DNA of 64,000 bases from an uncultured delta proteobacterium (GTDB lineage Bacteria > Desulfobacterota > Binatia > JACPRU01). The translations under genes were made by a program, and so were the position numbers. The DNA lies in assembly GCA_963745025.1 (NCBI GenBank), contig CAVUWD010000016.1:448001-512000 (forward strand), in the 5' to 3' direction. The notes under the pieces are model-generated. The model did not search any database. It had not been told where the DNA came from and saw only the letters and a list, made by a program, of their open reading frames with translations. Shown here in pieces: positions 12,812 through 54,958 of the stretch; the first letter of the stretch is position 1; every line of letters begins with the position of its first letter.

Positions 12812-12851
12812 TCTTCAGGGCTCGCCTGCTTGACCACGGCGGGCGCTATCG

Positions 12852-39100: not shown

Positions 39101-39109
39101 AAGAAGGCG

Positions 39110-39520
39110 ATGCTCTTCGAGATCGACACGACTCGCAAGCGCGAGACGATCGACATCACCGACCGGGTGCGCGAGATCGTTCGTCGATCGAAGCTCGAGC
39201 GTGGGCTCTGTCACGTAATGGTTCTGCACGCCACGGCGGCGATCGTCGTCAACGAGAACGACGATCCCAACATCGGCACCGACCTGCTCACGGCGCTCGA
39301 CGGCGCCGTTCCCGAGCACGCCGGCTGGCTTCACGACCGGATCGACAACAACGCCCAAGCGCACATTCTCGCCTCGATCCTCGGCCCTTCGGAGATCGTC
39401 CCCGTCGAGAACGGGGACCTCCGGCTCGGTCGCTGGCAGGGTCTGATCCTCGTCGAGCTCGACGGGCCGCGGCGCTCGCGGCGGGTGGTGGTCACGCTTA
39501 CGCCGGCGGCGACGATCTAG
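39110..39520 (+). CDS. yjbQ: YjbQ (UPF0047) family protein
   Basis: HATAAIVVNEN.DP, NAQAHI and LGRWQG...ELDGPR motifs. Confidence 0.9.
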   Translation: MLFEIDTTRKRETIDITDRVREIVRRSKLERGLCHVMVLHATAAIVVNENDDPNIGTDLLTALDGAVPEHAGWLHDRIDNNAQAHILASILGPSEIVPVENGDLRLGRWQGLILVELDGPRRSRRVVVTLTPAATI

Positions 39521-39646
39521 TGGTAGAACGAGCGTAGACGACGGGACGTGAGCCTGCTTCCGGGGCGGGTGGTGCTGGAGCGTCCCGATGCGCTCTGTTG
39601 CCGCGAGCCCGCCGACTCGCTCGACAGCGGCACCGCGCGATGCCGA

Positions 39647-40354
39647 TCAGAATCTCTCTTTGAACGGGCGGACCTCGAGTTCCATCGTCCACGCGCTCGG
39701 ATCCTGATGTGCGAGATGCCAATACGTCTCGGCGATCGCATCCGGATTCAGCATATCTTCCGGCTCGAGCCCCGGGATGCGCCGGCCCGGGATGTCGATC
39801 GAGCCATCGACGTTGATCCACGCGACGTGAATTCCCCTGGGACCAAGATCGCGTGCGAGCGATTGCGCCAATCCGCGCATCGCAAACTTCGCTGGCCCGA
39901 ACGCCACCGACCTCGCCCCCGCCTTCACACCTGCCGTCGCGCCCGTGAAGAGTATCGTCCCGCGGCCGCGCGCGATCATGTCCGGCACCACTTGCTTCGC
40001 GCTCACGAACGCGCCGAACGCGTTGACTCGCCATGAGCTTTCGTACTGCTCGGGCGTGATGTCCGCGATAGTGCCGAACGCGCCGCTACCCGCATTGTAG
40101 ATCAGCACGCCAATCGGCCCGAGCCGCTCGCGAATCGACTGGAATGCCGACTCGACCTGCGCGCGGTCGCCGACATCGGCCGGCACCTCGACCGCGTCGC
40201 CGCCTGCCGCTTTGATTTCAGCGCCTAGCGTTCGCAGATAGTCAGCGCTGCGTGCGCTGATCGCGACGGAGTATTCCTTTGCGAATCGACGCGCGAGCGC
40301 CGCCCCCAATCCTGGACCGACTCCGACCACCGCTGCGACTTTGGGCTGCTTCAT
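39647..40354 (-). CDS. SDR oxidoreductase
   Basis: GVGPGLG, YNAG and FTGATA..AKFAMRGLAQSLAR motifs. Confidence 0.9.
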   Translation of the reverse strand: MKQPKVAAVVGVGPGLGAALARRFAKEYSVAISARSADYLRTLGAEIKAAGGDAVEVPADVGDRAQVESAFQSIRERLGPIGVLIYNAGSGAFGTIADITPEQYESSWRVNAFGAFVSAKQVVPDMIARGRGTILFTGATAGVKAGARSVAFGPAKFAMRGLAQSLARDLGPRGIHVAWINVDGSIDIPGRRIPGLEPEDMLNPDAIAETYWHLAHQDPSAWTMELEVRPFKERF

Positions 40355-40497
40355 TGTTGCCGTGGCGATTCGCTCCCTTGGTTATGACGGCGCGGCCGGA
40401 TGCGCAAGCGGCTCGGACTCGGCACGAAGCATAGATTCTTTTCCGTGGCGTCTTTGCGTTCTGACGAAGATGTTGTGTTTCCCGCGCGCATGGCGCG

Positions 40498-40527
40498 TTG
40501 ACACTGGTAGCTACACGGGGCTACTTT
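40498..40527 (+). promoter_or_regulatory. Promoter/operator of phd-vapC
   Basis: TTGACA-N18-TACTTT containing a GTAGC/GCTAC inverted repeat. Confidence 0.55.
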
Positions 40528-40535
40528 CAGACGCC

Positions 40536-40826
40536 ATGAAGGCAGTGGCAGTCAAGGAGCTCAAGAATCGCCTCAGCAGCTACCTGCGCGAGGTCAAGAA
40601 CGGGGAGGTCGTGCTGGTGACGGATCGCGGTCGGGTCGTTGCCGAGCTGCGCCGGCCGAGCACGGGAGCAGCGCTCAGCGCGCACGACCAGGTCCTGGAG
40701 CGGCTCTGCGCCGAAGGCGTCCTGGTTGCGGGGCTGCCGCAGGATCCCCGCGCCTACCGACCGTCGCCGCTCCGTCGCGCCGTCGCGAGTGGCGACCTGC
40801 TCGCCGCGGAGCGTGGGGAGCGGTGA
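40536..40826 (+). CDS. Phd/YefM antitoxin
   Basis: AVKELKNRLSSYLREVKNGEVVLVTDRGRVVAEL. Confidence 0.9.
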   Translation: MKAVAVKELKNRLSSYLREVKNGEVVLVTDRGRVVAELRRPSTGAALSAHDQVLERLCAEGVLVAGLPQDPRAYRPSPLRRAVASGDLLAAERGER

Positions 40827-41254
40827 CGGTCTACGCCGAGACGAGCGCGGTACTGCGCTGGCTCTTTGCCGAGGAGGGAGGCGAGGCGCTGCGGGCGGCG
40901 CTGGCGGCGGCGGGGAAGGTCACCTCGTCGCGCTTGACGCTGATCGAAACCCGCCGGGTCGTGCGCCGCGCCGAGCGCGATGGACGCATCACGGCGGCGC
41001 AGAGCGCCGACGTGTTGGCCGTCTTTGCCCAGGCGGTCTCCACCTGGGCGATTCTCGAGATCACCGAGGAGATCGCACGGCGGGCTGAAGACGGCTTCCC
41101 GAATGAGCCCGTGCGTACGCTCGATGCCATCCACCTGGCGAGCGCGCTCTTCCTCCGCCAGTCGTTCCCCGACCTCGTCGTCGTCACCGCCGACGAGCGC
41201 GTACGCGCCAACGCGGCGCTCTTGGGCTTCCAAGCGGAGGCCCACCAGCCATGA
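40823..41254 (+). CDS. VapC/PIN toxin
   Basis: YAETSAV, E, RTLDAIHLASA and TAD motifs; overlaps the antitoxin stop. Confidence 0.9.
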   Translation: MTVYAETSAVLRWLFAEEGGEALRAALAAAGKVTSSRLTLIETRRVVRRAERDGRITAAQSADVLAVFAQAVSTWAILEITEEIARRAEDGFPNEPVRTLDAIHLASALFLRQSFPDLVVVTADERVRANAALLGFQAEAHQP

Positions 41255-41394
41255 AGAGTCCCCGCGCGCGGTGGATCTCCGTCAGGGGCGCCGGCCGCAC
41301 GGTTCGGACAAGTCGCCTCGTAACGCTGTGGAAGGCACGGTAGTCGGACGCGCTACGCCGTCGCCGTGAAGCCGACGACTCCTCCCAACGATCA

Positions 41395-41438
41395 CCTCGC
41401 GCCTACACGCCCGACACCTCGCCGACAAGATCCTGACT
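41395..41438 (+). pseudogene. Scrap of the cyclase-STAND gene linker
   Basis: CCTCGCGCCTACACGCCC..CACCTCGCCGACAAGATCCTGAC encodes PRAYTP-HLADKILT, as at 16388-16435. Confidence 0.7.
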
Positions 41439-41446
41439 CGCGTCGA

Positions 41447-41776
41447 TCAACCGCCGAGGCCGAGAAACATCAGGATCGCACGGTTGAGGCGTACCATGTC
41501 TGCGTAGGCCAGACTCCCCACGCGGTTGCCGAGCTTCTCCTTGGCGACCGTCGCGATCTTGTCGACCATCAGCCGGGACGTGGTCCGCAGACCATTCAGT
41601 TCGCTCGGTGCCACGATCAGACGAAGCAACGGCGCATCCGTCGTATCGCTCGTGAACGGACAGGTCGTGATGGATGCGGTTGCGGCGAAGCGATCGTCCT
41701 GGACGATCACCACGGGGCGCGGTTTGCCCGCGTAGTCTTTGCCGCCGGCCGCCGTCCAGACTTCGCCGCGCTTCAC
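41447..41776 (-). CDS. MazF/PemK toxin
   Basis: MKRGEVW..GKPRPVVIVQDD..MVDKI.TV...G..VG.L. Confidence 0.9.
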   Translation of the reverse strand: MKRGEVWTAAGGKDYAGKPRPVVIVQDDRFAATASITTCPFTSDTTDAPLLRLIVAPSELNGLRTTSRLMVDKIATVAKEKLGNRVGSLAYADMVRLNRAILMFLGLGG

Positions 41777-41835
41777 TCGTCGAGTCCGATCGCGATCGCG
41801 TCGACGAACGCCTGGTCCTTGGCCGCGTGGCGACT
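41773..41835 (-). pseudogene. 3' remnant of a DUF3018-like antitoxin
   Basis: HAAKDQAFVDAIAIGLDE* overlaps the mazF start (GTGA). Confidence 0.55.
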
Positions 41836-41844
41836 GCACGCGTC

Positions 41845-42496
41845 GGCGCGTCGCGAGCTGGAAATGGCGCTCACGATGCAGCCCGACTTGGCTACCGCTC
41901 ATGAATGGAACGGCATCTATTTGGTCATCGCCGGCCAGGCCGATGAGGGACTCGCCGAGTCGCGGCGCGCGGTCGAGCTGGATCCGCTGTCGCCCGAGAC
42001 GAACACCTTCTTGGGCCTCAACCTCTACTTCGTCCGCCGCTACGATGAAGCAATCAAACAGCTGCGCACCGCGATCGCCACTGACCCGGGCTATTGGTAT
42101 GCGCATCTGTGGATCGGGCGTGCGTACGCCCGCGCGGGCAGGTCTTCCGAGGCGATCGCCGAGCTGAGGAGCGCGCAGCGCTTGGAGGGATCAGGGAGCC
42201 CGGAAATCGAGTCGGCCCTCGGGCGTGCGTATGCGGACGGAGGGGACAGGGCCGAAGCGACCAAGGTGCTCGACCATTTGCGCAACCGGATGCGCGACGA
42301 GTTCATCGCCGCTACCTTCATGGCGACGATGCATGCCGGGCTGGGCGAGGTGGACGAGGCCTTCGCGGCGCTGGGGCAGGCCGAGGCGCAGCACTCGTAC
42401 TACGTGCCATGGTGGAAGGTCGATCCCGAGCTCGACCCGTTGCGCTCCGACCCGCGGTTCACCGTGCTGCTGAAGAAGGTGGGGTTGGACAACTGA
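41845..42496 (+). pseudogene. TPR C-terminus of a TolB-like/TPR cyclase or kinase
   Basis: RRAVELDPLS repeats ending in KVDPELDPLRSDPRF; no 5' part. Confidence 0.75.
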
Positions 42497-42681
42497 ACGC
42501 CCGGATGACACGTGCTGCACAACGCGGTCAATCTGCTCGGTGCGCCCGTTGGGCTGGTTGTCGTCAGCCCCTGACCCCCGATGCGAAATTACCCGCCGCG
42601 TTCAGGTCACGGAAGAAATTTGGGATCGCGGCGAATCGTGGCTATCCTATGTCCAAACGGCACGCGTCGAGGAGGAAGGAA

Positions 42682-43124
42682 ATGAAGATCAAATCATTGG
42701 GTCATGTGGTGCTGCGGGTGACCGACTGCGAACGGGCGAACGGCCTTCTACAACGGCGTGCTCGGGCTGCCGGTCTGTGCCCGTTTAGACCAGGACGGCA
42801 TGAAGATGGCGTTCTTCTCGCTCGGCAATCATCACGACTTTGCGGTGATGGAGGTGAAGCGGCGAGGGCAGCAGCCGGGCCGAATCCGCAGTGGGGTTGC
42901 ATCATGTCGCCTTCAACATCGGCACCACCTTGGACGAACTGCGCGAAGCCAAGGCGAAGCTGGACGCCGCGGGCATCGCGACCGATCCCGTCGACCACGA
43001 GGTGACGAAGTCGCTGTACTTCAAGGATCCCGACGGCAACGGCGTCGAGCTGTACGTCGATGCGTCCGATGTCTGGCGCCAACACCCGCAGCGGGTCGCA
43101 CAGTTGAGGCCGCTCAAGTTGTAG
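42682..43124 (+). pseudogene. VOC family protein, frameshifted
   Basis: LGHVVLRV / HHDFAV / GLHHVAF..SLYFKDPDGNGVELY over three frames. Confidence 0.8.
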
Positions 43125-43198
43125 CGCTAATTCCGAGCCAGTTCGGTAGCGATCTTCGCCGCGATCATCGATGCCGTGAGGTACGCGAGCTCTCGCAG

Positions 43199-43689
43199 CT
43201 ATTTCTTGTGCTCCCCCTTGTGCTCGTGCTTCTTCGCTGCCCCGGGAGGAGGCAGGCCGATCGAGGCATGATCGAGCACGTAGCGCCAGCCGGAGCCGGT
43301 CTTCGCAATGACTTCCGTAGCGCGGATCTGCGAGGTCGTTGTCTTACCGTCGGGGTCGGTCTGTGTCACTTCCCAGTGACCAACGATCAAGATGTGAGAA
43401 TCGCCGAGCGGCATCCCCTCGAGCGACTTGATGACGGCCTTGGTATTGCTCTTTGCGTCGCAGAGACCGGGGATGAGCTTCTCGATCGCAGCCTTCCCCT
43501 TGGCCTCTTCCCCTGCTCCCGGCCACACGACGACCGCGTCATCCGCATATAGGGCGAGGACAGCGTTCACGTCGCCCGCCTCGCCGCTTTGGAAAAGGCT
43601 TCGTCATGCGCTCTGGCATCCGCCGTGGGGTCCGCGAAGGCCGGGGCTGCAAGCGCAAGTACCAGTGCTACCGCACTCCAGTTCCGCAT
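43199..43689 (-). CDS. Secreted NTF2/SnoaL-like (DUF4440) protein, frameshift near 43575
   Basis: Signal peptide [19 protein letters not shown]; [16 protein letters not shown]. Confidence 0.7.
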
Positions 43690-43789
43690 GTTCGTCTCCT
43701 CCTCGGAGGTTTCTCCCACGACCGCGCCGACACGGTCAAGCAACGACCGAGAGCTGCGGAGCGAAGGCACGGGATGTCTTGGATCCACG

Positions 43790-44311
43790 GCAGCACCACG
43801 CGGTAGACGTCGATCGGCACGCGAATGTTCTTCAGCTCCGGCTGCCCGAGTCGAACGAGTGGCTCCTCGATCTTGTTGCGAATCTGATCGAACACAGGAC
43901 CGGAGATGCAGATTCCCCCGGCTCCGCCAGGGGTTCGGGGCGGGCGGCGATGTTCACGCCGTCGCCGAAGACGTCGCCGTCGCGCACCTCCACGTCACCG
44001 AGATGGAGGCCGATGCGCACCTGGATGCGCCGCTCGGCTGCCTCGGATGAATTGCGCTGGACGAGCGCCTTCTGAATCCCGATGGCGCAGCGCGCCGCCT
44101 GCAAGGCGCTGGCGAACACCACCAGGAACCCGTCGCCGGTCTCCTTGACTTCGCGACCTCCGTACTGCGCAAAGATCGGCCGCAGCAGTTGGCGTTGCTC
44201 GCGGAGGAGAGCCAGCGCCAGCGCTTCGTCGCGCTGGGTCAGCGCGCTGTAGCCGACCATGTCGGTGAACATGATTGCGGCCAGCTTCCGGTGTTCCTCT
44301 TCGTCGGACAT
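43790..44311 (-). pseudogene. Class III adenylate cyclase domain, truncated and frameshifted
   Basis: [33 protein letters not shown], then [13 protein letters not shown]. Confidence 0.85.
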
Positions 44312-44439
44312 GCGGTGGCTCGTGTTCCTACCACTTGCCCGTGCCCGGTGTCGAAACCGGTGCGTAGGCGCGGGGCGCAGTCGGAGTGTCGACGAGTCGA
44401 AAACCGGGTTGGGGACTTCGACTTTCGACTAGACTGTGG

Positions 44440-44514
44440 TCAAAACGCCTTCTGCACCTCGGGTGGTGCAGCGTCGTAGTCGCGTTGAAAGTGGCTCGTC
44501 AGGCGGTAGCGCAC
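44440..44514 (-). pseudogene. Truncated RelE/ParE-like toxin
   Basis: VRYRLTSHFQRDYDAAPPEVQKAF* directly after the RHH gene. Confidence 0.55.
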
Positions 44515-44523
44515 GGCGGCGCA

Positions 44524-44811
44524 TTATGAGCGCGAGCGGCGCGCCTTGCGGCGCTGCCCGGCCATCCAGCGCTGCCCTTCCTCGACGGTCTCGAAAGTAG
44601 GGGACAGGCCCTTGCCGGCTTTGGCGTCGAGGTACGCTTGCCGGCCGGCTTCCTCGATGTCGGGTTGTGCCTGGAGGTAGAAGCGCAGGGCGTCGCGCAC
44701 CAGCTCACTCCGGCTGCGGTGGGCGGCTTTGCTGCGGCGATCGACCTGCTTCATCATCGGCACGGGCAGCGAGACGGTGACAACGGCGGTGGTTTGAGGA
44801 TTGCGTGGCAT
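44524..44811 (-). CDS. CopG/RHH antitoxin
   Basis: VTVSLP...VD......SRSELVRDALRFYL. Confidence 0.8.
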   Translation of the reverse strand: MPRNPQTTAVVTVSLPVPMMKQVDRRSKAAHRSRSELVRDALRFYLQAQPDIEEAGRQAYLDAKAGKGLSPTFETVEEGQRWMAGQRRKARRSRS

Positions 44812-45081
44812 AGGGTTATGAACCTTTATTAAGTGAGCTTACCACGGTCGGCTGGGGGCGTCAACTTTGAGAGATGGGGCGACAGACGCGTACACCGATT
44901 TTGAATTGACACGCGTTGCGCGAGCTGCGCAACCTCATCGGGCGGCTGGTGATGATGACGCGCAGCGAGACGATCGGCGTCGCTTCGAAGCGAGTGATGA
45001 TCGACGAGGAGTCGTTGGCGCCGAACGGCGCGGTCCGCATGGTCCTCTGACCCGACGCGGCCGCCGCCTTTGAGGGAGCCC

Positions 45082-45879
45082 ATGTACGAAACTCTCGACG
45101 TTCACGGCGAAGACCGCGTGCTCTGGGTCGCGCTCAACCGCCCGGAGCGGCTGAACGCGCTGAATGCGCGGATGATCGAGGAGCTCGGGTCGTTGTTCGA
45201 CGCCTTGCCGGACGACCGCGAGACGCGCGTGGTGATCCTGCGCGGCGCCGGCAGGGCGTTCTGCTCCGGCTGGGACCTGCGGGACGAGTCGGCCGGGGGC
45301 GGCCTCACCGGTCCGGTCGACGCGGCGCTGGGCCTCCAGCGCCGCTTCAGCAGCGTGATCGTGCGCATGCGGCGAGTGCCGCAGCCGATCCTCGCGTGCG
45401 TGCACGGCGCGGCGACAGGCGGCGGGCTTTCGGTCGCGCTCGGCGCGGACGTGCGCATCGCGGGCGAGTCCGCGCGCATGAACTGCGCGTACATCCGCGT
45501 CGGCTTGGGCGGCTGCGACGCGGGATCGAGCTACTTCCTGCCGCGCATCGTCGGCGCCTCCGTGGCGGCCGAGCTCATTCTCACCGGCAACTTCATCGAC
45601 GCGGCGCGCGCGGAGCGGGTCGGGTTGGTGTCCCGGGTCGTTCCCGACGCGGAGCTCGAACCGGCGGCTCGAGCGCTCGCCCAAGACATCGTGCGGAACT
45701 CCCCGCTCGGCGTTCGACTCACCAAGGAATGCCTGAACGTCTCGATCGACGCGCCGAGCCTCGAAGCCGTGGTGGCGATGGAAGACCGCAATCAGATCCT
45801 CGCCGCCCAGTCGGGAGACTTTCGCGAGGGCCTGGCGGCATTCATGGAGAAGCGCCCGCCTCGCTACCGCGACGGCTGA
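45082..45879 (+). CDS. Enoyl-CoA hydratase/isomerase
   Basis: LNRPERLNAL, AFCSGWDL, GGGLSVAL and AFMEKRPP motifs. Confidence 0.92.
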   Translation: MYETLDVHGEDRVLWVALNRPERLNALNARMIEELGSLFDALPDDRETRVVILRGAGRAFCSGWDLRDESAGGGLTGPVDAALGLQRRFSSVIVRMRRVPQPILACVHGAATGGGLSVALGADVRIAGESARMNCAYIRVGLGGCDAGSSYFLPRIVGASVAAELILTGNFIDAARAERVGLVSRVVPDAELEPAARALAQDIVRNSPLGVRLTKECLNVSIDAPSLEAVVAMEDRNQILAAQSGDFREGLAAFMEKRPPRYRDG

Positions 45880-45969
45880 ACGCGGAGCTGAGCCCGAGGA
45901 GGCAGTTCGCATCCTCGAGGAGCTCGCCAGGGCGAGGAATCAGGAGTAGACGAGGGGCAAGGCGGAGTG

Positions 45970-46377
45970 ATGACCGAGGCGGAGATTGCGACCTTCCACG
46001 ACAGTTTTCAACGGTGCATGGCGACGGGCCGGCGCTTCTTCGACGTTTTCTACGATCATTTCCTGAAATCATCGCCAGAGATTGCTGCGAAGTTTCAAAG
46101 AACCGATCTCAAGCGGCAGAAGCAGAAGCTAAAACTCTCACTCCACATGATGGTGGGCGCGTTGGTGCTCCACTCTGCGGATTACTCGATGTTAGCGTAC
46201 GTCGCGGAGCGCCACGCCCACACCAACTGGGATATCCCGCCAAATCTCTATCAGTTCTGGCTCGATTCGTTGATCTTCGCCGCGAAGATCTGCGATCCGT
46301 CCTTCGATGCCGAGACGGAGAAGAACTGGAGAACGGCGATGCAGCCGGGAATCGACTACATCGTATCGCTCTACTAA
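45970..46377 (+). CDS. Single-domain globin
   Basis: FFDVFYDHFL..SPEI..KF..TD..RQ, proximal H in AERH, Y..W..SL. Confidence 0.8.
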   Translation: MTEAEIATFHDSFQRCMATGRRFFDVFYDHFLKSSPEIAAKFQRTDLKRQKQKLKLSLHMMVGALVLHSADYSMLAYVAERHAHTNWDIPPNLYQFWLDSLIFAAKICDPSFDAETEKNWRTAMQPGIDYIVSLY

Positions 46378-46489
46378 CGGCGTCTCTTTTCAAAGAGACC
46401 CAATACCTGCCGCGACTTCGGCCTTGCAATCGGGTGCCATGCATTGATGCGGGAAAACTCTTTGGACACTGGGCGAAAGGAGGCCACAG

Positions 46490-46858
46490 ATGGCACTAGG
46501 TAAAGAGATCGGCGATTTTACGTTCAAACAGACATCCGCGACCTACGCGGAAGACGGTGGTAGCGTAAGCGTCAACTTCGATGGCACCGCCACGCGTTTC
46601 GGAACCGTCTTGGGCACACTGATCGCCCGTGGCGAGCCCGGGGCAAAGCAGGGCACATGCAGCTGGCGGGGACAGGGTTTTCTGGAGAACGGCGACAACG
46701 TGGTCGGCTTGGGCGAAGGGACGTGGCAGGAGACCGGAAAGCACCAATGGCGGATTCGGATGATCAACCAAACTTCGGACGGCCAGATTTTCGCCGCAGA
46801 TAGGCGGCTGGACCTCGCGACGCGCTCGTTCTCCGGCAAGCTCATTGAGTGGAGTTAG
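46490..46858 (+). CDS. Hypothetical beta-rich protein
   Basis: AAAGGAGG RBS; 122 aa ORF with no recognised motif. Confidence 0.6.
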   Translation: MALGKEIGDFTFKQTSATYAEDGGSVSVNFDGTATRFGTVLGTLIARGEPGAKQGTCSWRGQGFLENGDNVVGLGEGTWQETGKHQWRIRMINQTSDGQIFAADRRLDLATRSFSGKLIEWS

Positions 46859-46874
46859 ACCCGGGTTTTTGACT

Positions 46875-47145
46875 CTCGCGGGCCGCGCACTGTCGCCGCA
46901 GATTCTGGAGCTGCGCGGACGTCTGGCCGCCGCGCTCGGTGACGCGCCGGCTTCCGACCTGACGCTGCGACGGGCGCTGGATCTCCACCGCGCCATCGGC
47001 GCCATGGGGCACGCCGAGCGGCTGGCGCGGGAGATCGGCGCATGAAGTGCGCGAGGAGCGGTAGCCAGAGCCCCGAGCGCGCGAAGTTCTGCCTCGAATG
47101 CGGCGCCTCCTTCGCCTCGCGCTGCGCCAGCTGCGGGAGGGCCAC
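46875..47145 (+). pseudogene. Cyclase-STAND junction scrap 1 (3' end plus next 5' zinc ribbon)
   Basis: ..GHAERLAREIGA* overlapping MKCARSG..AKFCLECGA..RCASCG. Confidence 0.85.
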
Positions 47146-47208
47146 TGACCGCAACTTGTGGTACCATACTTCCTCGCTGTTTTACCGACTGGGCCGAAGG
47201 AGCAGTGA

Positions 47209-47448
47209 ATGAGAACGTACAACATGACGGCCGTGATCTGGAAGGAAGCGAGCGCCTACGTCTCGAAATGCCCGGAGACCGGTGTCGCAAGCTGCGGCGA
47301 GACGCCTGAAGAGGCCCTGCGAAATCTCAAGGAGGCCGTCGAGCTGTACCTGGAAAACGCGAAACGCCTAGGGATGCTGCGAGACATCCACGATACCCTC
47401 GCCGCTCCTGGAAAATTCACCACCTCCTTTGCGGCTTCCGTGCGATGA
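47209..47448 (+). CDS. hicB: HicB antitoxin
   Basis: YVSKCPE.GVASCGETPEEALRNLKEAVELYLE. Confidence 0.9.
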   Translation: MRTYNMTAVIWKEASAYVSKCPETGVASCGETPEEALRNLKEAVELYLENAKRLGMLRDIHDTLAAPGKFTTSFAASVR

Positions 47449-47609
47449 GCAAGCTCCCGGGCCTCTCGTCCGACGAGGTCCTCAGGGCGCTGCGGAAGAT
47501 CGGATTCGTCTACGCTCCCAAGCGAGGGAAAGGCAGCCATGCGGCGTTGTATCGAACTGACGCAAGCGGCAAGACGTGGCTGGTGATCGTGCCGAAGCGA
47601 CAGAGCTGA
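47445..47609 (+). pseudogene. hicA: HicA toxin, 3' truncated
   Basis: MSKLPGLSSDEVLRALRKIGF..GKGSH..VIVP, then a frameshift and fusion to a cyclase scrap. Confidence 0.8.
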
Positions 47610-47654
47610 AGCCTGGGAGCGTCGGGACGCCAAGCCCCGCTGGGCCAAGATCCT

Positions 47655-48798
47655 CAGCTCCCGACCCGCGCGCCTACACTCCCAAGCACCTCGCCGAAAA
47701 GATCCTGCAGTCGAAGTCCGCTCTCGAAGGCGAGCGGAAGCAGGTGACGGTGCTGTTCGCCGACGTGAAGGGCTCGATGGATCTGGCCGAGCAGCTCGAC
47801 CCGGAAGATTGGCACGAGATCCTCGACCGCTTCTTCCAGATCCTCACCGACGGGGTGCATCGCTTCGAGGGCACGGTCAACCAGTACACCGGCGACGGCA
47901 TCATGGCGCTGTTCGGCGCGCCGATCGCCCACGAGGATCATGCGCAGCGGGCCTGCTATGCGGCGCTGCATTTGCGGGACGCCGTGCGCGAATACGCCAA
48001 CGAGGTGCGCGCGCGCCACGGCATCCCGTTCGGCGTGCGCATCGGCCTGAACTCGGGCGAGGTGGTGGTCGGCCGGATCGGCGACGATCTGCGCATGGAC
48101 TACACGGCGCAGGGGCATCGGCCTGGCGCAGCGGATGGAGGCGCTCGCCGAATCGGGGCACATCTGTCTCTCGGAGCACACGGCGCGGCTGGTCGAGGGC
48201 TACTTCCAGGTGAAGGACCTGGGACGCACCAGGGTCAAGGGCGTGGACGAGCCGGTCGGGCTCTACGACGGAGTGCCTCGCGAGCGGCGGCGGGCCGCGC
48301 GTCGTTGCCCCGATCCAACCTCCTCCAGGACCCGCGCCGACCACTCCAGCGTCGCCCGGCCGTCGCCTGCGTGGAGGTGTCCAAAGCCTGGGGACGTCCC
48401 AAGCGCCGCGCGCGGTGCCGTGAGAGTGCCGCGATCTCTCGTGATCGCCGCACGGGCCTCGTGATCCTTCCCCAGGTGCTGGCCTTACTTGCGGAGGCAC
48501 ACCTGGCACTCGGGGAGGAGGCCGCACGCATCGCGGCGGAGTGCGACGATCCGAGGGCACAGTACGCCATCACTCGGGACGACTCGTTGTCGAGCTTTTC
48601 GAACGTGCCGAGCACCTGGTCGAGTCGATCGAGGGCCGCTCGCTGTCGCCGCGGATCCTGGAGATGCGCGGGCGCCTGGCCGCCGCGCTCGGCGACGCGC
48701 CGGCTTCCGGCCGGGCGCTGCTACAAGCGCTCGAGCTCTACCGAGCCATCGGTGCAACGGGGCACGCCGAGCGGCTGGCGCGGGAGCTCGGGAGTTAG
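47655..48798 (+). pseudogene. Internally deleted cyclase-STAND gene (cyclase domain plus 3' end copy 2)
   Basis: PDPRAYTPKHLAEKIL..MDYTAQGH near-identical to the 16211 paralog; ATPase missing; ends GHAERLARELGS*. Confidence 0.88.
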
Positions 48799-49037
48799 GC
48801 GGTCGGGTTCAGAGGCCTCGAGGCGACGCGGCGACCCGCCGGTTACAGGCGCGTATCTACATAACGTATGTACGGAGAGAAGGGGAGGCGATGAGCGGAC
48901 GGGCCAAGCAGCGCCGATGGAGCCGGGCCTTCATCGAGCTGGCTGGCGCAACGCCCGACTTCCAACGCGGTACGATCATCAGCCCCAACGACCTCAAGAT
49001 CGCGGCGCATGTGCTGTCCTTGGACCTCGTGCTGGTA
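48799..49037 (+). pseudogene. Doubly deleted copy of the vapBC operon at 51288-52022
   Basis: Same leader and operator; vapB start joined to RRWS.AFIELAGATPDF, then joined to vapC DL.IAAH.LSLDLVLV. Confidence 0.85.
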
Positions 49038-49174
49038 CTGGCACCACACCCCAGCGTCGCTTCGCTCCGATCATGATCACTCGGCATGACTGATCACGAT
49101 CCCCGGAACAGATGATCACGATGGGCGGAATGCGCACGTCGTGCACCCGACGCTTCCCAAGTCGATCGACGGCC

Positions 49175-49489
49175 TCAGGCCGCCTTCGTCTTCGCTAGCG
49201 GCCGGATCTCTTGCTCGATGCGATCGAGGAGCGCGTCTTCGGCGCTCTCGAGATCGTAGGCCGCCTGCGCGTTCATCCAAAACTCCGGGGTCGTGCCGAA
49301 ATAGCGCGCGAGCCGAAGCGCCGTGTCGGACGTGATGCCGCGCCGGCCGTGCACGATATCGCCGATCCGCGTAACCGGCACGTGCAGATCCATCGCGAGC
49401 CTGTTCATCGTGATCCCCAGAGGCTTCAAAAACTCCTCCAGCAGGATCTCGCCGGGATGGATCGGGGCAAGCTTCCTTCTCTTGGCCAT
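49175..49489 (-). CDS. higA: HigA antitoxin
   Basis: PIHPGEILLEEFL..TALRLARYFGTTPEFWMN.Q..YDL. Confidence 0.95.
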   Translation of the reverse strand: MAKRRKLAPIHPGEILLEEFLKPLGITMNRLAMDLHVPVTRIGDIVHGRRGITSDTALRLARYFGTTPEFWMNAQAAYDLESAEDALLDRIEQEIRPLAKTKAA

Positions 49490-49504
49490 GCGCTGTTCCT
49501 CCTT

Positions 49505-49783
49505 CTAGTGATAGTCGACGATCTCGACGTCGTAGGCGTCTCCATCGCGCCACACGAAGCAGAGTCTCCATTGGTCGTTCACCCGGATGCTATGCTGCCC
49601 TCGTCGATCGCCCTTTAACGCTTCGAGTCGATTAGCGGGCGGTGCCGCCAGGTCCTTCAATTCCTTCGCGATATGAAGCAGCCGAAGCTTTCGCAGAGCA
49701 ACCCGCTCGATCGCAGCGAATTGTCGGCTCCGCTCGCGGTGGAAGAAACTCTCGGTTTTTCCATCGCCGAAGCTCTTGATCAC
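49505..49783 (-). CDS. higB: HigB toxin
   Basis: MIKSF..NRLEALKGDRRGQHSIRVNDQWRLCF..EIVDYH. Confidence 0.95.
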   Translation of the reverse strand: MIKSFGDGKTESFFHRERSRQFAAIERVALRKLRLLHIAKELKDLAAPPANRLEALKGDRRGQHSIRVNDQWRLCFVWRDGDAYDVEIVDYH

Positions 49784-49795
49784 TACTGAGGTTCA

Positions 49796-49820
49796 TATAC
49801 TGTAATCCAGTATACGTCAA
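49796..49820 (-). promoter_or_regulatory. higBA promoter/operator
   Basis: TATACTG-N5-CAGTATA palindrome adjacent to a minus-strand TTGACG. Confidence 0.6.
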
Positions 49821-49915
49821 CCAGGGGATCCGCGCAGGAGGTCCGCGGCCGGGACGGCCGGCGGTTCCCAACCTCAGAGCGGAAGAGATAGGTTCGTAGG
49901 CTCGGAGGCAGGACG

Positions 49916-50152
49916 GTGCGGTGTGCGGCGTGCGGGTCTGAGAACCCAGCGGAAGCGAACTTCTGCAACGGCTGCGGCGCGGCCCTATCCGCTCACTGCG
50001 TCGCGCGCGGAGCGGACAACCCGGCCGGATCGCGCTTCTGCAACCACTGCGGGGGTTCGCTGGTCGGCGGAGGCAGCGATGCGGTCCTCGAGGTCCTGGT
50101 CGACACGGCAGATTTGAAGGACGCGAACGCCCTGCTCAAAGGGCTTTCGTGA
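49916..50152 (+). pseudogene. Zinc ribbon fused directly to a cyclase-STAND C-terminal tail
   Basis: MRCAACGSENP..FCNGCG..FCNHCG, then DTADLKDANALL. Confidence 0.75.
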
Positions 50153-50176
50153 CAACGTTCGACAACGATGTTCGGG

Positions 50177-50560
50177 TCATCTTGCTTCCCCGGCAAAGAG
50201 AACGAGATCCGGGATGTCACGATAGTGGCGCCAGTTTCGCGTAACCAAGGGAAGGCGCTTGACCAGCGCCGCGGCCGCAATCAGGGCATCTTCTTTGGGT
50301 AGGTTGCGATGCGCGCTCCGCAGCGACGAATAGCGCTCCGCGATTCGCCCGTCGAGCCGCACCAGCCGATGCCGTCTGAGCACCTCAAGGATGGCCTCTC
50401 GCTCTCGAGATCGGAGTCCCCGTTTGGCGAGCAACTCCCTACGAGTCACCGCCGTATAGTAGATGACGAAGCGGCTGGCCTCCATGATCGAAGCGAAGCG
50501 TCCGCTATTGAGATAGTCGATGAGGACATCGGTATCTACGAGGAGCCCGATTTTTGCCAC
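50177..50560 (-). CDS. VapC/PIN toxin
   Basis: VDTDVLIDYL, E, DALIAAAA and VTRN.RHY motifs. Confidence 0.9.
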   Translation of the reverse strand: MAKIGLLVDTDVLIDYLNSGRFASIMEASRFVIYYTAVTRRELLAKRGLRSREREAILEVLRRHRLVRLDGRIAERYSSLRSAHRNLPKEDALIAAAALVKRLPLVTRNWRHYRDIPDLVLFAGEAR

Positions 50561-50805
50561 CGCCGGATCTCCTCGAGAAAAGCTTCGTCGGTTTTCTTGT
50601 CGGAGCTCCGCCGGAGCGCTCGAACGTAAGCCACGCTATCGAGGACATCCGTGTGGCCATAAGGATTGAACTTCTCGCGCACCATCTCTTCGAGGATCGC
50701 CACGGGATACACCCCGCGCCTTCTCGCGGCGCGGATCACGAGTCGCTTGAGGTTCGAGTCGAACGACAGCGTCCACTTGTCCTTCGTGAGAGACGTCTTA
50801 GGCAT
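50536..50805 (-). CDS. Putative antitoxin (RHH-like)
   Basis: Small ORF overlapping the PIN start; beta-alpha-alpha N-terminus (KWTLSFD..LKR..IRAA). Confidence 0.65.
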   Translation of the reverse strand: MPKTSLTKDKWTLSFDSNLKRLVIRAARRRGVYPVAILEEMVREKFNPYGHTDVLDSVAYVRALRRSSDKKTDEAFLEEIRRWQKSGSS

Positions 50806-50859
50806 CGCGTGGCTCCGTACGTGTGAAATACGTATCATGAGAGCGGCGGAACTTCTACG

Positions 50860-51287
50860 ATGAAGTGCTCACGGGGCGCGCATACCTTCCCCAGGTGCTG
50901 GCCGTACTCGCGGAGGCGTATCTGGCATTTGGCGAACGGACCGAGGCCTTGGCGACGGCGCGCGAGGCCGTCGATCTGGGACGCGGCGGCGGTTGCCGCT
51001 ACTTCGAAGCGCACGCGCAGCTCGCGCTGGCCGGGGCCCTGCTGGCAACGGACGGCGTCGTGCCACGAACGGAAATCGAGGCCGCCCTCGAACGCGCCGA
51101 GTACCTGGTCGAGTCGATCGAAGACCGCTCGCTGTCGCCGCGGATCCTGGAGATGCGCGGGCGCCTAGCTTCCGCGCTCGGTGACGCGCCGGCTTCCGAC
51201 CGGGCGCTGCGGCAAGCGCTGGATCTCTACCGCACCATCGGCGCCACCGGGCACGCCGAGCGGCTGGCGCGGGAGATCGAGTGTTAG
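50860..51287 (+). pseudogene. Cyclase-STAND scrap (MKCS start fused to 3' end copy 3)
   Basis: ATGAAGTGCTC start identical to 16211, then the last ~135 codons ending GHAERLAREIEC*. Confidence 0.85.
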
Positions 51288-51340
51288 GCTGCCGGGTTCA
51301 GAGGATCGAGGCGACCCTGCGACCCGCCGGTTGCAGGCAC

Positions 51341-51361
51341 GTATCTACATAACGTATATAC
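51341..51361 (+). promoter_or_regulatory. vapBC operator
   Basis: GTATCTAC-N5-GTATATAC imperfect palindrome; a variant also occurs near 48852-48872. Confidence 0.55.
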
Positions 51362-51381
51362 GGAGCAGAAGGAGGAGGGAG

Positions 51382-51618
51382 ATGAGCGAACGGGCCAAGC
51401 TTTTCATGAGCGGCGGGAGTCAGGCGGTTCGCCTCCCGAGAGCCTACCGCTTCGAGAACCAGAAAGAAGTGTTGATCTCACGAAAGGGTCAGCAAGTGAT
51501 CTTGGAACCAAAGCGGCGCCGATGGAGCCCGGCCTTCATCGAGTTGGCTGGCGCAACGCCCGACTTCCCGTATCCGGACGAACCACCCCCAAGCGACCAC
51601 GGCCCTGACTTTGAATGA
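51382..51618 (+). CDS. vapB: AbrB-type VapB antitoxin
   Basis: AKLFMSGGSQAVRLPRAYRF. Confidence 0.93.
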   Translation: MSERAKLFMSGGSQAVRLPRAYRFENQKEVLISRKGQQVILEPKRRRWSPAFIELAGATPDFPYPDEPPPSDHGPDFE

Positions 51619-52022
51619 AGTACCTCCTCGATACGAATGCGTGCGTCGACTATCTGAACGGCCGCTTTCCGAGATTGACGGAGCGAATTCAGCAATCGGC
51701 GCCGAGCGATCTGGCTGTCAGCTCCGTCGCCGTTGCCGAGTTGAGATACGGTGCCGAGAAGAGCAGTCAGCGACAGCGGAATCACGAGCGACTCGACGTG
51801 TTTTTTGGCGACGTTCCCTGCGTCGACTTCGACAGCGGCGCCGCGTTGGTCTACGGCCGCGTCCGCGCGGTCTTGGAACGACGCGGTGTGGTCATCGGCC
51901 CCTACGACCTCCAGATCGCGGCGCATGCGCTGTCCTTGGACCTCGTGCTGGTCAGCGACAACGTCCGCGAGTTCCGGCGGGTTGAAGGCCTGAAGGTCGA
52001 GAACTGGCGGCGCCGGCGGTGA
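51615..52022 (+). CDS. vapC: VapC toxin
   Basis: YLLDTN, AELRYGAEKS, GPYDLQIAAHA and DNVREF.RV.GLKVENW motifs. Confidence 0.95.
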   Translation: MKYLLDTNACVDYLNGRFPRLTERIQQSAPSDLAVSSVAVAELRYGAEKSSQRQRNHERLDVFFGDVPCVDFDSGAALVYGRVRAVLERRGVVIGPYDLQIAAHALSLDLVLVSDNVREFRRVEGLKVENWRRRR

Positions 52023-52051
52023 GCGAAGCCTCGCTCGCAAACCGAGCGCGA

Positions 52052-52760
52052 ATGGATTGCGGTAGTTGTGGAGTAGAGATCCTACCGGATTCGCTTTTCT
52101 GCACGGCATGCGGTGCGAAGATCGAGATCCAGTGCAGCGCTTGCTCGGCCCGTAACCCGCCTGGCGCGAGGTTCTGCCGAAAATGCGGCAGCACCCTGGG
52201 CGCCGACGTTCAGGTCGCAGATAGGCACCCCGAGCCGCGACCCCCGAGCCGCGGAGCTACACCCCCAAGCACCTCGCCGAGAAGCGGCGGTGATCGGCAA
52301 GGACTTCACCGAGCCGATTCTGCAGCGTGTCGTCAGTGAGGTCGGCCGGTCGCCCCTCCCGAGCGCAGCTCGCACTGGAAGCGGCCCTGCTGGCGACGGA
52401 CGGCGTCGTGCCCCGCGCGAAGATCGAGTCCGCCCTCGAGCGCGCCGAGTACCTGGTCGAGTCGGTCGCGGGCCGCTCGCTGTCGCCGCGGATTCTGGAG
52501 ATGCGCGGGCGCCTGGCAGCCGCGCTCGGCGACGTGCCGGCTTCCGACCGGGCGCTGCGGCAGGCGCTGGAGCTCTACTGCGCCATCGGCGCCACCGGAA
52601 ACGCCGAGCGGCTGGCGCGGGAGCTCGGCGCATGAAGTGCGCGAACAGCGGTAGCCGGAGCCCCGAACCGCGCGAAAGATTCTGCCGCCGGCAAACGCCT
52701 GAACGGGTAGAGTGCGGAGAAGCATTCGCCGTGCGCTCGCCCTCGCTGCAGCCCGGAGCC
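52052..52760 (+). pseudogene. Collapsed cyclase-STAND gene (zinc ribbon / YTPKHLAEK / AAVIGKDFTEPIL / 3' end copy 4) plus the next MKCA start
   Basis: Four collinear pieces of a ~3.4 kb gene within ~580 bp, then GCATGAAGTGCGCG as at 47040. Confidence 0.85.
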
Positions 52761-52879
52761 CCGGCAGGCGCGAGTTTGCCTTCCCTGACGTCTTTCGTTC
52801 CGCTGCGCGGGCCGGTGCAAGCGAACCTGTGCGAACCTGTGCGAGATTGACATGCAGAGCCATGAGCCCTTAGGAGATC

Positions 52880-52895
52880 TGGTCAAGGTTGACCA
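52880..52895. promoter_or_regulatory. Operator palindrome upstream of phd
   Basis: TGGTCAA-GG-TTGACCA; TTGACA at 52847. Confidence 0.55.
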
Positions 52896-52908
52896 ACTGG
52901 AGGCTGCG

Positions 52909-53154
52909 ATGCCGGAAACAATTCTGAATCTTTATGAGGCAAAGTCGTCTCTGTCGCGGCTCGTCGATCGTGCCGCCGCGGGAGAAGAGATCATCATCGC
53001 CAAGGCGGGGAAGCCGATGGCAAAGTTGGTCGCCGTTTCGCGGCGGGCACGCCGCCGCAAGCCGGGCGGTTGGAAGGGACGGGTCGTCATCGCCAAGAAC
53101 TTCGACGCGCCGCTGCCCGCGGCGATCCGCGCGGCGTTCGCAGGCCGACGGTGA
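52909..53154 (+). CDS. Phd/YefM antitoxin
   Basis: NLYEAKSSLSRLVDRAAAGEEIIIAKAGKPMAKLV..NFDAPLP. Confidence 0.93.
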   Translation: MPETILNLYEAKSSLSRLVDRAAAGEEIIIAKAGKPMAKLVAVSRRARRRKPGGWKGRVVIAKNFDAPLPAAIRAAFAGRR

Positions 53155-53162
53155 GCGTGGCG

Positions 53163-53537
53163 ATGCGGTTGTTGCTGGACACCCATGTGTTCCTCTGGTG
53201 GCGGGATGACAGCCGCAGGCTGAAAACAAGCGCGCGGCGTGCCATCGCCGAAGCGCAGATCGTGTTCGTCAGCGCCGCCACCGCATGGGAAGCCGCCATC
53301 AAGGCCGCCCTCGGACGGCTGCAAATTCCGGATACCGTCGAGGCGGGCGTGATCGACAGTGGCTTTGAGAAGCTGCCGATCGGCTTCTCCCACGCCGAGT
53401 CGGCGGCCCGCTTGCTACCGCACCACGCGGATCCGTTCGATCGGATGCTGGTCGCGCAGGCGAAGGCGGAAGGGTTGACGCTGGTGACCCACGATCGGCG
53501 GCTCGCACCATACGAGATCGAGATCTTGTGGACCTGA
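53163..53537 (+). CDS. VapC/PIN toxin
   Basis: MRLLLDTHVFLW, SAATAWE, HHADPFDRMLVAQA and VTHD motifs. Confidence 0.93.
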   Translation: MRLLLDTHVFLWWRDDSRRLKTSARRAIAEAQIVFVSAATAWEAAIKAALGRLQIPDTVEAGVIDSGFEKLPIGFSHAESAARLLPHHADPFDRMLVAQAKAEGLTLVTHDRRLAPYEIEILWT

Positions 53538-53591
53538 CACGCACGGAGTTCCTCAACCTGCTCTAAGGGTAGGCGCCGGATCGACCGCGAT

Positions 53592-54449
53592 ATGCGCGGC
53601 TCTGCATGTGGCCGAGAAAATCGCAGTGACTCCAGGTTCTGCCTGGGCTGTGGAGTTACACTGGCTCCCACGTGCCCGCATTGCAGCCGCGAGGTCCCGA
53701 GCGATGCTGCGTTCTGCGATGGCTGCGGGCTACCCGGAGAGGGCCGGCCTCCCGGCAATCGGTGGATAGGGCCGAAGACGGTTTGGCTGGAACTGCCCTT
53801 TCCCCAATGATCACCCCGCAACTACACACCCAAGCACGGCGCGCCGATCGCGCATGAGGATCATGCGCAGCGGGCTTGCTACGCGGCGCTCTCGCTGCGC
53901 GATCGCCTGCGCGTATGGGCCGAGACCTACGATCGCGAGATCACGGACGTGTTTGCCCTCCAGGACGAGATCAGCGCGACCATAGCGGCGTCGCTGGTGG
54001 GCGACCTCACGCGGGCGGAGGGGGAGCGCGCGCGACAGAAGGGCACCGAGAACCTCGAGGCGTGGAGCCTCTACCAGCTCGGCTTGCAGCGTGCCGACCG
54101 CATGACGCCTGCCGACATGGCCGAGGCACGTCGGCTCTTCGAACGAGCGGTCGCGCTCGACCCGCGCTTCGCGACCGCGCTGGCACAGCTGGCTTTTGCA
54201 GATCTCTGGGAAGTGGTGTTCGGCTCGGGCGATGCCCCCGAAAAGAAAGTGGCCGATGCGCTCGGGAACGCCCGGCGAGCGGTCGAGCTCGACTGGCGAG
54301 ATCCCATCGCCCAGGCCGCGCTCAGCTGGGCCCAGCTCTCCGGAGGCGATCTCCGGAACGGGTTCGACTCGGCGCGGCGCGCCGTGGAGTTGAACCCGAG
54401 CATCGGTTGGCTCACTGCTGACAATCTGCCGTCAGGGCTTGGCTCCTAA
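53592..54449 (+). pseudogene. Chimeric scrap: zinc ribbon plus STAND-cyclase pieces plus TolB-like/TPR segment
   Basis: FCLGCG..CPHC..FCDGCG; NYTPKH|GAPIAHEDHAQRACYAAL|VWAETYDREITDVFALQDEIS..TPR. Confidence 0.8.
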
Positions 54450-54562
54450 TGATCTAGCGCTCAGACGCTCGTGCACATCGCCTCCAGCCGGCTTCGTCGA
54501 CGACGCGAACGATTCTCGCACGGAGCGGTGGGTGAGAGTATGATCGGGAAGGCGCGAGGACA

Positions 54563-54958
54563 ATGGCTCAGTACGAGATCGAGGTGATCTTGCTCCGGCA
54601 GCTCGCGAGCTACCTCGCGATGCCCATCTTCATCGTCGATCCGCGCGGTACCCTCGTTTTCTACAACGAGCCGGCGGAGATCATTCTCGGCAAGCGGTTC
54701 GAAGAGACGGGCGAGATGAGCCCCGAGGAATGGTCGACGGCCTTCCGGCCTACAGACGAACAGGGCCGCCCGTTGGAGCCGGAGGCGATGCCGCTGATGA
54801 TCGCTTTCAACGACCGCCGTCCCACGCACGGGAGCCTCTGGATCCAGGGCTTCGACGGCGTTCGCCGCCACATCGAAGCGACGGCGTTTCCGCTCGTCGG
54901 CCAGTCGGATCGATTCCTCGGGGCGGTCGTCCTCTTCTGGCTGAAGGCGGCTCCATGA
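54563..54958 (+). CDS. Stand-alone PAS domain protein
   Basis: PIFIVDPRGTLVFYNEPAEIILG. Confidence 0.85.
   Translation: MAQYEIEVILLRQLASYLAMPIFIVDPRGTLVFYNEPAEIILGKRFEETGEMSPEEWSTAFRPTDEQGRPLEPEAMPLMIAFNDRRPTHGSLWIQGFDGVRRHIEATAFPLVGQSDRFLGAVVLFWLKAAP

Follow-up and report, generated by a model that had tools for sequence, protein, structure and literature searches.

How nine type II toxin–antitoxin (TA) modules came to be strung along about 14 kb of DNA among gene scraps is the question raised by positions 40498–54449 of the window, the 64,000-nt stretch analysed here (G000:C16:448001-512000). The genome that holds the window, G000, is a metagenome-assembled genome (MAG) of an uncultured delta proteobacterium, 5.65 Mb in 20 contigs, 92.65% complete, with 7.6% contamination and ~65% G+C. 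It was compared with seven other genomes of the same family, all MAGs and 65–84% complete, among them G001 of the same genus and G006 of a different genus. Many of the scraps belong to a family of STAND proteins with a zinc ribbon and a cyclase domain. The repeated piece of the array is now recognised as the junction between tandem genes of one STAND subfamily, which is the new observation. The answer that we favour, with about even confidence, is that the locus is what deletions have left of a tandem STAND array that carried TA modules in its junctions, the addictive modules having been spared.

Two intact members of the STAND family lie in the left part of the window. Paralog 1 (12852–16214, forward strand, 1120 residues) comprises a zinc ribbon, a class III cyclase domain, an AAA_16 domain and TPR repeats, as identified by Pfam. 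Paralog 2 (16211–19633, forward strand, 1140 residues, also located by Pfam) shares 4 nt at its start with the stop of paralog 1, and tandem intact pairs with such an overlap occur on C17 and C11 of G000 as well. A glyoxalase-domain gene (19630–20826) in turn shares a 4-nt overlap with the stop of an intact STAND gene. Pieces of the family were mapped by tblastn with nine full-length paralogs as queries, and the residue numbers given below refer to a protein of ~1118 residues. From 46.9 kb onward the spacer DNA consists mostly of 5′ zinc-ribbon starts and 3′ ends of this family, which bears out what had been proposed for the spacers to the right of position 46875.

Four STAND 3′ ends are present in the array, all in direct orientation on the forward strand and all of one subfamily. 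Junction copy A begins with a 3′ end (46875–47045, with residues 1070–1118 at 46896–47042) that passes through an ATGA stop/start overlap into a zinc-ribbon start (47042–47137, residues 1–32), and it is 89–91% identical to the junction G000:C7:123434-123918. The other three copies were placed by tblastn. Copy B is a 3′ end at 48451–48798 (residues 1057–1118 at 48598–48795) with 96% identity to G006:C11, and copy C is a 3′ end at 50865–51287 (residues 989–1116 at 50865–51281). Copy D (3′ end 52363–52635, residues 1041–1118 at 52399–52632) again has the ATGA overlap, followed by a degraded zinc-ribbon stub whose right limit, ~52760, is approximate. Together with the G000:C7:123434 copy the four 3′ ends form a clade with a support of 0.979 and 83–93% nucleotide identity, compared with ~55–60% identity to the 3′ ends of other paralogs. 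The alignment of nine copies covered 75 nt ahead of the stop codon and 130 nt beyond it. The ancestral junction, composed of 3′ end, ATGA overlap and zinc-ribbon start, is readable in copies A and D of the window, in G000:C7, in G001:C3 and, over the first 19 nt only, in G006:C11. Because the ancestral stop/start overlap can be read in these five of the nine copies, the recurring unit is a tandem-gene junction of one STAND subfamily, cut at varying distances on both sides. The homology between copies stops at −8, 0, +19, ~+70 and ~+105 nt from the STAND stop, without fading inside an arm.

The zinc-ribbon starts of the array are 50–65% identical to one another, as unlike as random paralogs. 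In a tree of the 3′ ends the array scraps have terminal branches of 0.06–0.13, versus 0.002–0.008 for the long copies in C7 and G006:C11. Support in this tree is mostly 21–59 on fewer than 200 sites, and it is compatible with both in-situ duplication and separate acquisition. Across bacterial families this STAND gene is evenly 70–89% identical, with no mosaic identity profile. The idea of a specially conserved 3′ end that travels with its cargo was dropped because identity to the orthologs of other families is even over the last 1700 nt. The closest long relative of the array 3′ ends, G000:C7:120396-123826, is without a zinc ribbon, has a different N-terminal region of ~90 residues ahead of the cyclase and is spread over three reading frames, due to either frameshifts or sequencing errors.

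The TA modules of the 14-kb array comprise five intact pairs and four decayed ones, and all but one of the nine that had been predicted were found by Pfam where they were expected. Toxin folds identified by Pfam are four PIN domains, a PemK, a HigB and a HicA, and the assignment to type II follows from toxin and antitoxin folds in adjacent small genes. Antitoxin folds identified by Pfam and NCBIfam are two Phd, an RHH, a HicB, an HTH and a MazE/AbrB. The intact modules on the forward strand are phd-vapC module 1 (40536–41254; Phd 40536–40826, PIN 40823–41254), vapBC module 3 (VapB 51382–51618, recognised by NCBIfam as well as Pfam; PIN 51615–52022) and phd-vapC module 4 (Phd 52852–53154, PIN 53163–53537). 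On the reverse strand are higBA (HigA 49175–49489, HigB 49505–49783) and a PIN gene (50177–50560) with a 100-residue partner (50536–50838), the latter pair forming a sharp-edged block at 50146–50869. All of these are supported by Pfam apart from the 100-residue partner, which has no match in Pfam, NCBIfam or PADLOC. The closest public relatives of this PIN domain, in genomes and metagenomes, are 44% and 63% identical. The Atlas feature placement locates the partner near unnamed clusters of ~89 residues (0.95), commonest in Nitrospirota, and also near a cluster in which 55% of members have RHH_1 (0.92). The partner may represent an unnamed RHH-like antitoxin family.

Among the decayed modules, MazF/PemK (41447–41830, reverse strand, Pfam) is accompanied by an N-terminally truncated MazE-like remnant (41776–41889, reverse strand), previously labelled as a DUF3018 fragment, which by tblastn matches residues 46–83 of a MazE-like protein of G006 (E 8e-5). 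An RHH antitoxin (44524–44811, reverse strand, RHH_1 by Pfam) adjoins a RelE/ParE-like stub of 27 residues (44440–44523). The stub has no Pfam match and its assignment is therefore by eye alone. HicB (47209–47448, forward strand) is followed by a truncated HicA (47445–47609, profile positions 2–38 of 58), both identified by Pfam. The 3′ end of hicA is gone, and the deletion joins hicA to residue 43 of a STAND gene, here gene B. Comparison of repeats identified the vapBC remnant (48799–49093, forward strand) as an internally deleted copy of 51288–52022; against vapBC 51382–52022 it aligns in three pieces with 90–95% identity. The toxin is the broken partner in three of the four decayed modules (hicA′, relE′ and vapC′), and in the fourth, mazF, the antitoxin retains its toxin-binding half. 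TA modules located by Pfam occupy both strands, in agreement with the original prediction, and the spacers upstream of them contain operator-like palindromes. No genes other than TA pairs are intact to the right of 46.9 kb. Seven of the 37 toxin-family matches of the genome fall within these 14 kb, which represent 0.25% of the genome and would be expected to hold 0.09 (Poisson P ~1e-11).

The order of elements preserves the skeletons of successive STAND genes. From 46.9 kb the array runs from gene 0, of which only the 3′ end is present, through a zinc-ribbon stub, hicBA and gene B to the vapBC remnant and higBA. Gene B is composed of a cyclase part (47615–48269, forward strand, residues 43 to ~263, 78% identity to paralog C20a by tblastn), an inverted piece of 104 nt (48310–48413, reverse strand, 95% identity to the opposite strand of G000:C7:122919-123022) and the 3′ end of copy B. 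It continues with gene C, vapBC, gene D, phd-vapC and gene E. Gene C consists of a zinc-ribbon start (49916–50086, residues 1–57), the PIN module at 50146–50869 and residues 989–1116. In gene D, a zinc-ribbon start with linker (52052–52306, residues 1–80) is fused out of frame to residues 1041–1118, followed by the zinc-ribbon stub. Gene E is represented by 5′ pieces only (53592–54005, residues 1–68 and 144–200). The starts of genes C, D and E were placed by tblastn on the forward strand. The unit of 3′ end plus vapBC′ is duplicated within the array. Three details of the original prediction do not survive this map. The inverted piece of gene B contradicts the statement that all STAND pieces lie on the forward strand; hicBA and the PIN module at 50177 are located within gene skeletons and not between genes; and the TPR and cyclase scraps at 41864–44311 belong to a different cyclase/TPR family (27% identity).

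Elsewhere in G000 the same family was located with profile hidden Markov models, which yielded 61 matches to zinc-ribbon starts and 32 to 3′ ends. Fifteen of the 61 starts run into at least 1000 residues of STAND homology and the remaining 46 are truncated. About 45 STAND scraps have no toxin nearby. Outside the array, a toxin lies within 1 kb of one of 57 starts and two of 28 3′ ends; these all belong to one scrap locus, C6:4961-5726, a minigene of zinc ribbon and 3′ end that adjoins a PIN gene, and the two 3′-end matches are its two halves. Only one of the 30 toxin matches outside the array lies within 5 kb of a STAND match, a distance that covers 7.9% of the genome. Because almost all scraps outside the array are toxin-free, STAND ends are not general carriers of TA cargo in G000. 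Even so, the association recurs in the relatives: in the seven family genomes, a STAND 3′ end is no more than 1 kb away from four of 78 PIN matches, versus 0.31 expected from uniform placement (Poisson P ~3e-4), a naive null, as related genomes are not independent and both kinds of gene favour accessory DNA. The other 74 matches have no STAND 3′ end near, and the link concerns a minority.

Sixteen 3′-end copies of the subfamily were examined, six from G000, one each from G001 and G003, two from G006 and six from three other families; further matches in G067, G269 and G116 were left out. Genomes flagged as unpublished underlie none of the claims made here. Of these 16 copies, which span four bacterial families, eight have a TA module within ~250 nt, and six module types are represented. 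These are hicBA′, AbrB-type vapBC (twice, as vapBC′ and vapBC) and phd-vapC in G000, RHH-PIN_3 in G001, another phd-vapC in G003 and a truncated form of it in G006, and, in G114, BrnT with a frameshift and an RHH partner. In G050 the copy is abutted by a convergent GNAT gene of uncertain kind, and the remaining seven copies have no module. The 3′ ends that carry differing cargo share 83–94% nucleotide identity. Across several bacterial families the stop codon of a single conserved STAND gene is thus adjoined by TA modules of six types, a pattern that lends itself to testing.

The relatives also display less eroded arrangements. In G001:C10 a PIN module on the opposite strand stands between a long STAND 3′ part and the start of a long STAND gene, and in G006:C6 a PIN gene separates a 3′ scrap from a zinc-ribbon scrap. 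In G001:C2 a distance of 76 nt separates a PIN gene from the downstream start of a STAND gene with an internal deletion, and a full STAND gene is accompanied by a convergent PIN gene in G001:C27. G000 and G003 share a left flank, the STAND 3′ end, at 88–89% identity and a right flank, higBA with a zinc-ribbon start, at 97% (49082–50070 of the window against G003:C51). Between these flanks is the AbrB-type vapBC remnant in G000 and an intact phd-vapC in G003. This is the only pair in which both flanks are conserved around differing cargo, whereas the left flank is conserved in all 16 copies. The PIN module at 50146–50869 is 95% identical to a segment of G006:C24. The match is sharp-edged, and the sequences to either side of it are unrelated; beside the module G006 has STAND residues 1–121 and 222–262, and G000 only residues 1–57. 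No STAND homolog was found in the 1.2 Mb of sequence flanking 160 loci that carry relatives of this PIN domain (28–63% identity). DNA searches of the seven family MAGs, which are 65–84% complete, did not find vapBC 51288–52022, phd-vapC 52640–53590 or hicBA 47150–47620, which at this level of completeness does not prove absence. Collinearity between G000 and G001 at the locus is limited to 1.3 kb (54477–55817), and the flanks are on other G001 contigs.

In the reading that we favour, the locus would have started as a row of five or more cyclase-STAND paralogs in tandem, with type II TA modules lodged in the gene-to-gene junctions. Because neighbouring genes normally overlap by ATGA, the junction would be the sole point at which an insertion spares both genes, which would explain why modules start within a few bases of a stop codon. 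Deletions of the 3.4-kb gene bodies, one inversion and at least one segmental duplication of the 3′ end with vapBC′ would then have followed, and the deletions, the inversion and the duplication can each be seen directly in the array. Loss of an active TA module would kill the cell or its offspring, judging from the known addiction behaviour of such modules. Since deletions that remove an active module would be counter-selected, survivors would keep the modules together with the adjoining 3′ end and zinc-ribbon start. Recombination between the repeated STAND ends probably drove the duplications and deletions, and no dedicated capture machinery would have taken part. There is a precedent for TA modules as stabilisers of arrays in Vibrio, where those of superintegrons are thought to prevent large deletions according to a passage of PMC7167474 that cites Szekeres 2007.

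Several observations agree with erosion of a tandem array. Stages from long genes to scraps are all present in relatives, and next to the PIN module that both genomes share, more of the STAND gene is left in G006 than in G000. In most broken modules it is the toxin that is lost, the only intact genes right of 46.9 kb are TA pairs, and the long terminal branches of the array scraps match neutral decay. Fragmentation of STAND genes is genome-wide and mostly free of TA genes. If erosion is correct, the locus is a natural example of addictive TA modules deciding which DNA outlasts gene decay, with the adjoining gene ends as all that is left besides, and a caution for the annotation of MAGs, in which such scraps are easily miscalled as genes.

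Other observations weigh against erosion as the whole account. The four 3′ ends are of one subfamily, yet the neighbouring zinc-ribbon starts are as divergent as noted above, and the combination of like 3′ ends with unlike starts calls for additional duplications of the 3′ end with its TA module or for exchange of 3′ ends. TA modules near STAND 3′ ends exceed the uniform expectation in the relatives, and six module types after the stop codon of one subfamily are weakly explained by passive lodging. The sharp-edged PIN block stands in unrelated contexts in two genera, so TA modules move by some route. Four of the nine modules have decayed, so that addiction would not have been fully protective, and its role in limiting deletions at this locus is putative. 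The original prediction has conserved STAND ends acting as homology arms through which RecA-type exchange captures and shuffles TA cargo, without an integrase; the exchange would take place inside one genome or with DNA arriving from relatives, and the cargo would lie between a 3′ end and the next zinc-ribbon start. We regard this as doubtful, although parts of it agree with the data: cargo differs at a fixed left flank, and in G000 and G003 between two conserved flanks; modules of several types follow half of the subfamily 3′ ends, and PIN genes are enriched near such ends in relatives; uninterrupted identity between 3′ ends extends far enough to permit homologous exchange; one unit is duplicated; and all scraps but one are in direct orientation. 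However, the right-hand arms, the zinc-ribbon starts, are at 50–65% identity in our judgement too divergent for RecA exchange, and the PIN block has no flank in common with its G006 twin. Homology ends within a few bases of the STAND stop and not in an arm, without a mosaic profile. The near absence of toxins at STAND ends outside the array in G000, the 74 PIN matches in relatives that are away from STAND 3′ ends and the 160 loci without STAND homologs likewise argue against it. Slightly more doubtful again is a general form of this idea, in which tandem cyclase-STAND junctions would be integrase-free landing pads where TA modules, and perhaps other small cargo, are swapped among junctions and among related genomes by homologous or homology-facilitated recombination and addictive cargo guards the array. 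An equally low standing is given to the extension by which such landing pads would constitute a paralog-based functional analogue of the integron in several families of one class. If the bolder reading were true, multi-copy paralogs would provide a second, integrase-free route to building and exchanging cassette arrays, with a bearing on the movement of accessory and defence genes in uncultured soil and wetland bacteria.

Serial integration of the Campbell type, which we consider improbable, would have circular island DNA with a STAND 3′ end and cargo enter the junction repeatedly, by means of a tyrosine integrase since lost or by single crossover. Each event would leave a direct 3′-end repeat followed by cargo, and the TA modules would be the surviving island stabilisers. 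The 3′-end copies are indeed direct repeats with variable left limits. Moreover, in G006:C11 a 500-residue tyrosine integrase begins 19 nt into the zinc-ribbon start directly after a 3′ end of the same subfamily. Within the segment G006:C11:244000-262000, an intact tRNA-Asn (15608–15682) and a 61-nt copy of its 3′ part (4553–4613) bound a stretch (4553–15682) that holds two tandem STAND genes, the integrase and a homolog of the open reading frame at 46490–46858 of the window. This layout is that of a tRNA-integrated island with STAND genes as cargo. STAND scraps of G000 often adjoin integrase or rve fragments (C4:29.5k, C19:368k and 381k, C11:246k and 257k, C16:831k, C20:3.8k), and a tRNA-Asn fragment lies among STAND scraps at C16:842707. 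On the other hand, as the original prediction had it, no integrase or transposase is visible: the window contains none of the 22 Phage_integrase (PF00589), six rve and six DDE_Tnp_1 matches of the genome. Near the STAND ends of G000 there is no homolog of the G006 integrase, for which reason a junction-specific integrase was rejected as a candidate. The breakpoints right of the stop are scattered with no single core, no tRNA fragment is repeated in the window, and the other STAND 5′ parts of the array would be left unexplained. Less probable still is a functional coupling in which the STAND cyclases and the TA modules work together in a defence locus of fast turnover, the modules serving for instance as abortive-infection effectors. 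It would suit the stop/start overlap between the STAND gene and a downstream antitoxin reading frame in G003, the vapC stop 30 nt ahead of the next zinc-ribbon start in G000, and the PADLOC matches of the two intact STAND proteins to the Pycsar cyclase model PycC (E 2e-20 and weaker, with one weak TPR match in addition). These PycC matches concern the generic cyclase domain only. A link to Avs antiphage sensors, suggested earlier, was not confirmed, as PADLOC identified no Avs or other STAND defence model in either protein. The tripartite layout of effector, STAND NTPase and repeat sensor is present by Pfam (zinc ribbon, cyclase, AAA_16, TPR), but by itself it is also found in non-defence signalling STANDs, and the nearest NCBIfam model, a TOMM kinase/cyclase fusion, is under its cut-off (285 vs 706 bits). 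Furthermore, the TA modules are found on either strand and in many cases converge with the STAND gene, their type is not conserved, and the STAND genes are wrecked while TA modules are intact. Equally slight is the probability that collapsed or chimeric paralogs in the assembly produced false junctions. The contamination of the MAG and its division into 20 contigs, a STAND family with dozens of similar copies and the lack of a single record across the whole stretch would allow for such an artefact. However, exact contigs of 151–297 nt from four other metagenome runs bridge the junctions at 48798/48799, 49082, 52019 and 53837, although none of them spans the whole array. The G003 assembly shares the order of 3′ end, vapC-type module, higBA and zinc-ribbon start, and that of G006 shares a STAND 5′ piece followed by the PIN module. 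Gross misassembly of the array is unlikely because contigs bridge four junctions and two separately assembled relatives share the key adjacencies.

The locus is a variation on TA-stabilised arrays, conserved-flank hotspots and orphan-cassette arrays and does not constitute a new category. It resembles a Vibrio superintegron in carrying many type II TA modules scattered through an extended array in which most of the DNA is silent or dispensable. Unlike a superintegron, the window is without an IntI-type integrase. It may likewise lack attC-like repeats, with no recurring family of inverted repeats detected in 46400–54600 and no Rfam match in 39000–56000. The TA modules here are in both orientations, whereas superintegron cassettes are mostly co-oriented and promoterless, and what is repeated derives from a protein-coding gene and is not a recombination site. 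At hotspots with conserved flanks, homologous recombination in the flanks is the usual explanation of varying cargo. A conserved gene marks the site of varying cargo here as it does at the core defence hotspots of Pseudomonas aeruginosa (PMC10250203). In the present locus conservation is confined to the left flank, the STAND 3′ end; moreover, that flank is a multi-copy, island-borne paralog and not a single-copy core gene, and the cargo is almost exclusively TA modules. In the arrays of Rhs, CDI and MafB each repeat is followed by a different small toxin/antidote pair, and growth by recombination in the conserved fragment is the proposed mechanism. Their variable toxin forms one reading frame with the repeated fragment and is delivered to other cells. 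Direct repeats of the conserved 3′ fragment of a large gene are the feature that the window shares with these orphan-module arrays (PMC4287609). By comparison, the TA modules in the window are separate open reading frames with their own promoters, and the homology of the repeat breaks off no more than 8 nt from the STAND stop. Likeness to tRNA-integrated islands comes from G006, in which the same STAND genes and a tyrosine integrase lie between tRNA-Asn and the 61-nt repeat of its 3′ part; TA modules are common as island stabilisers, as a passage of PMC7167474 has it. The window differs in having no integrase and no tRNA fragment repeat, and its nearest tRNA (Asn, 2219–2291) is 38 kb away. No description of TA modules at junctions of tandem STAND/cyclase paralogs was found in the open-access papers searched, for which the family name was not used as a query.

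Parts of the stretch are present in metagenome runs from wetland, soil and sediment, each with a small share (at most 0.18), and none of those listed is an RNA run. Contigs of other metagenomes pile up on the cyclase stretch at 47568–48101 to a summed depth of up to 360, compared with 0–7 elsewhere, which presumably reflects a conserved domain of many organisms. Alternative joins, 49983 to 52257 and 48094 to 48787, are each represented by one low-depth, short-sided contig and were not used. A scan of the window for generic tRNA T-arm/CCA motifs returned one chance-level match. Fragments of tRNA-Asn away from the gene occur in G000 at C16:842707-842743 (37 nt), among STAND scraps and an rve match in C16:825-857 kb, and at C19:23318-23375 (58 nt). 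In two other families a convergent tRNA-Leu lies 300–650 nt downstream of the orthologous STAND gene (G229, 1993–2077; G114, 2335–2417), and in G114 the BrnT remnant and its RHH partner are located between the STAND gene and this tRNA. In the left part of the array a VOC/glyoxalase gene (42702–43124) reads in two frames. The open reading frame at 46490–46858 (forward strand, 122 residues) has no family match and is 84–91% conserved in G001 and G006, with neighbours that differ from genome to genome; its homolog in G006 lies within the tRNA-Asn island, beside the integrase.

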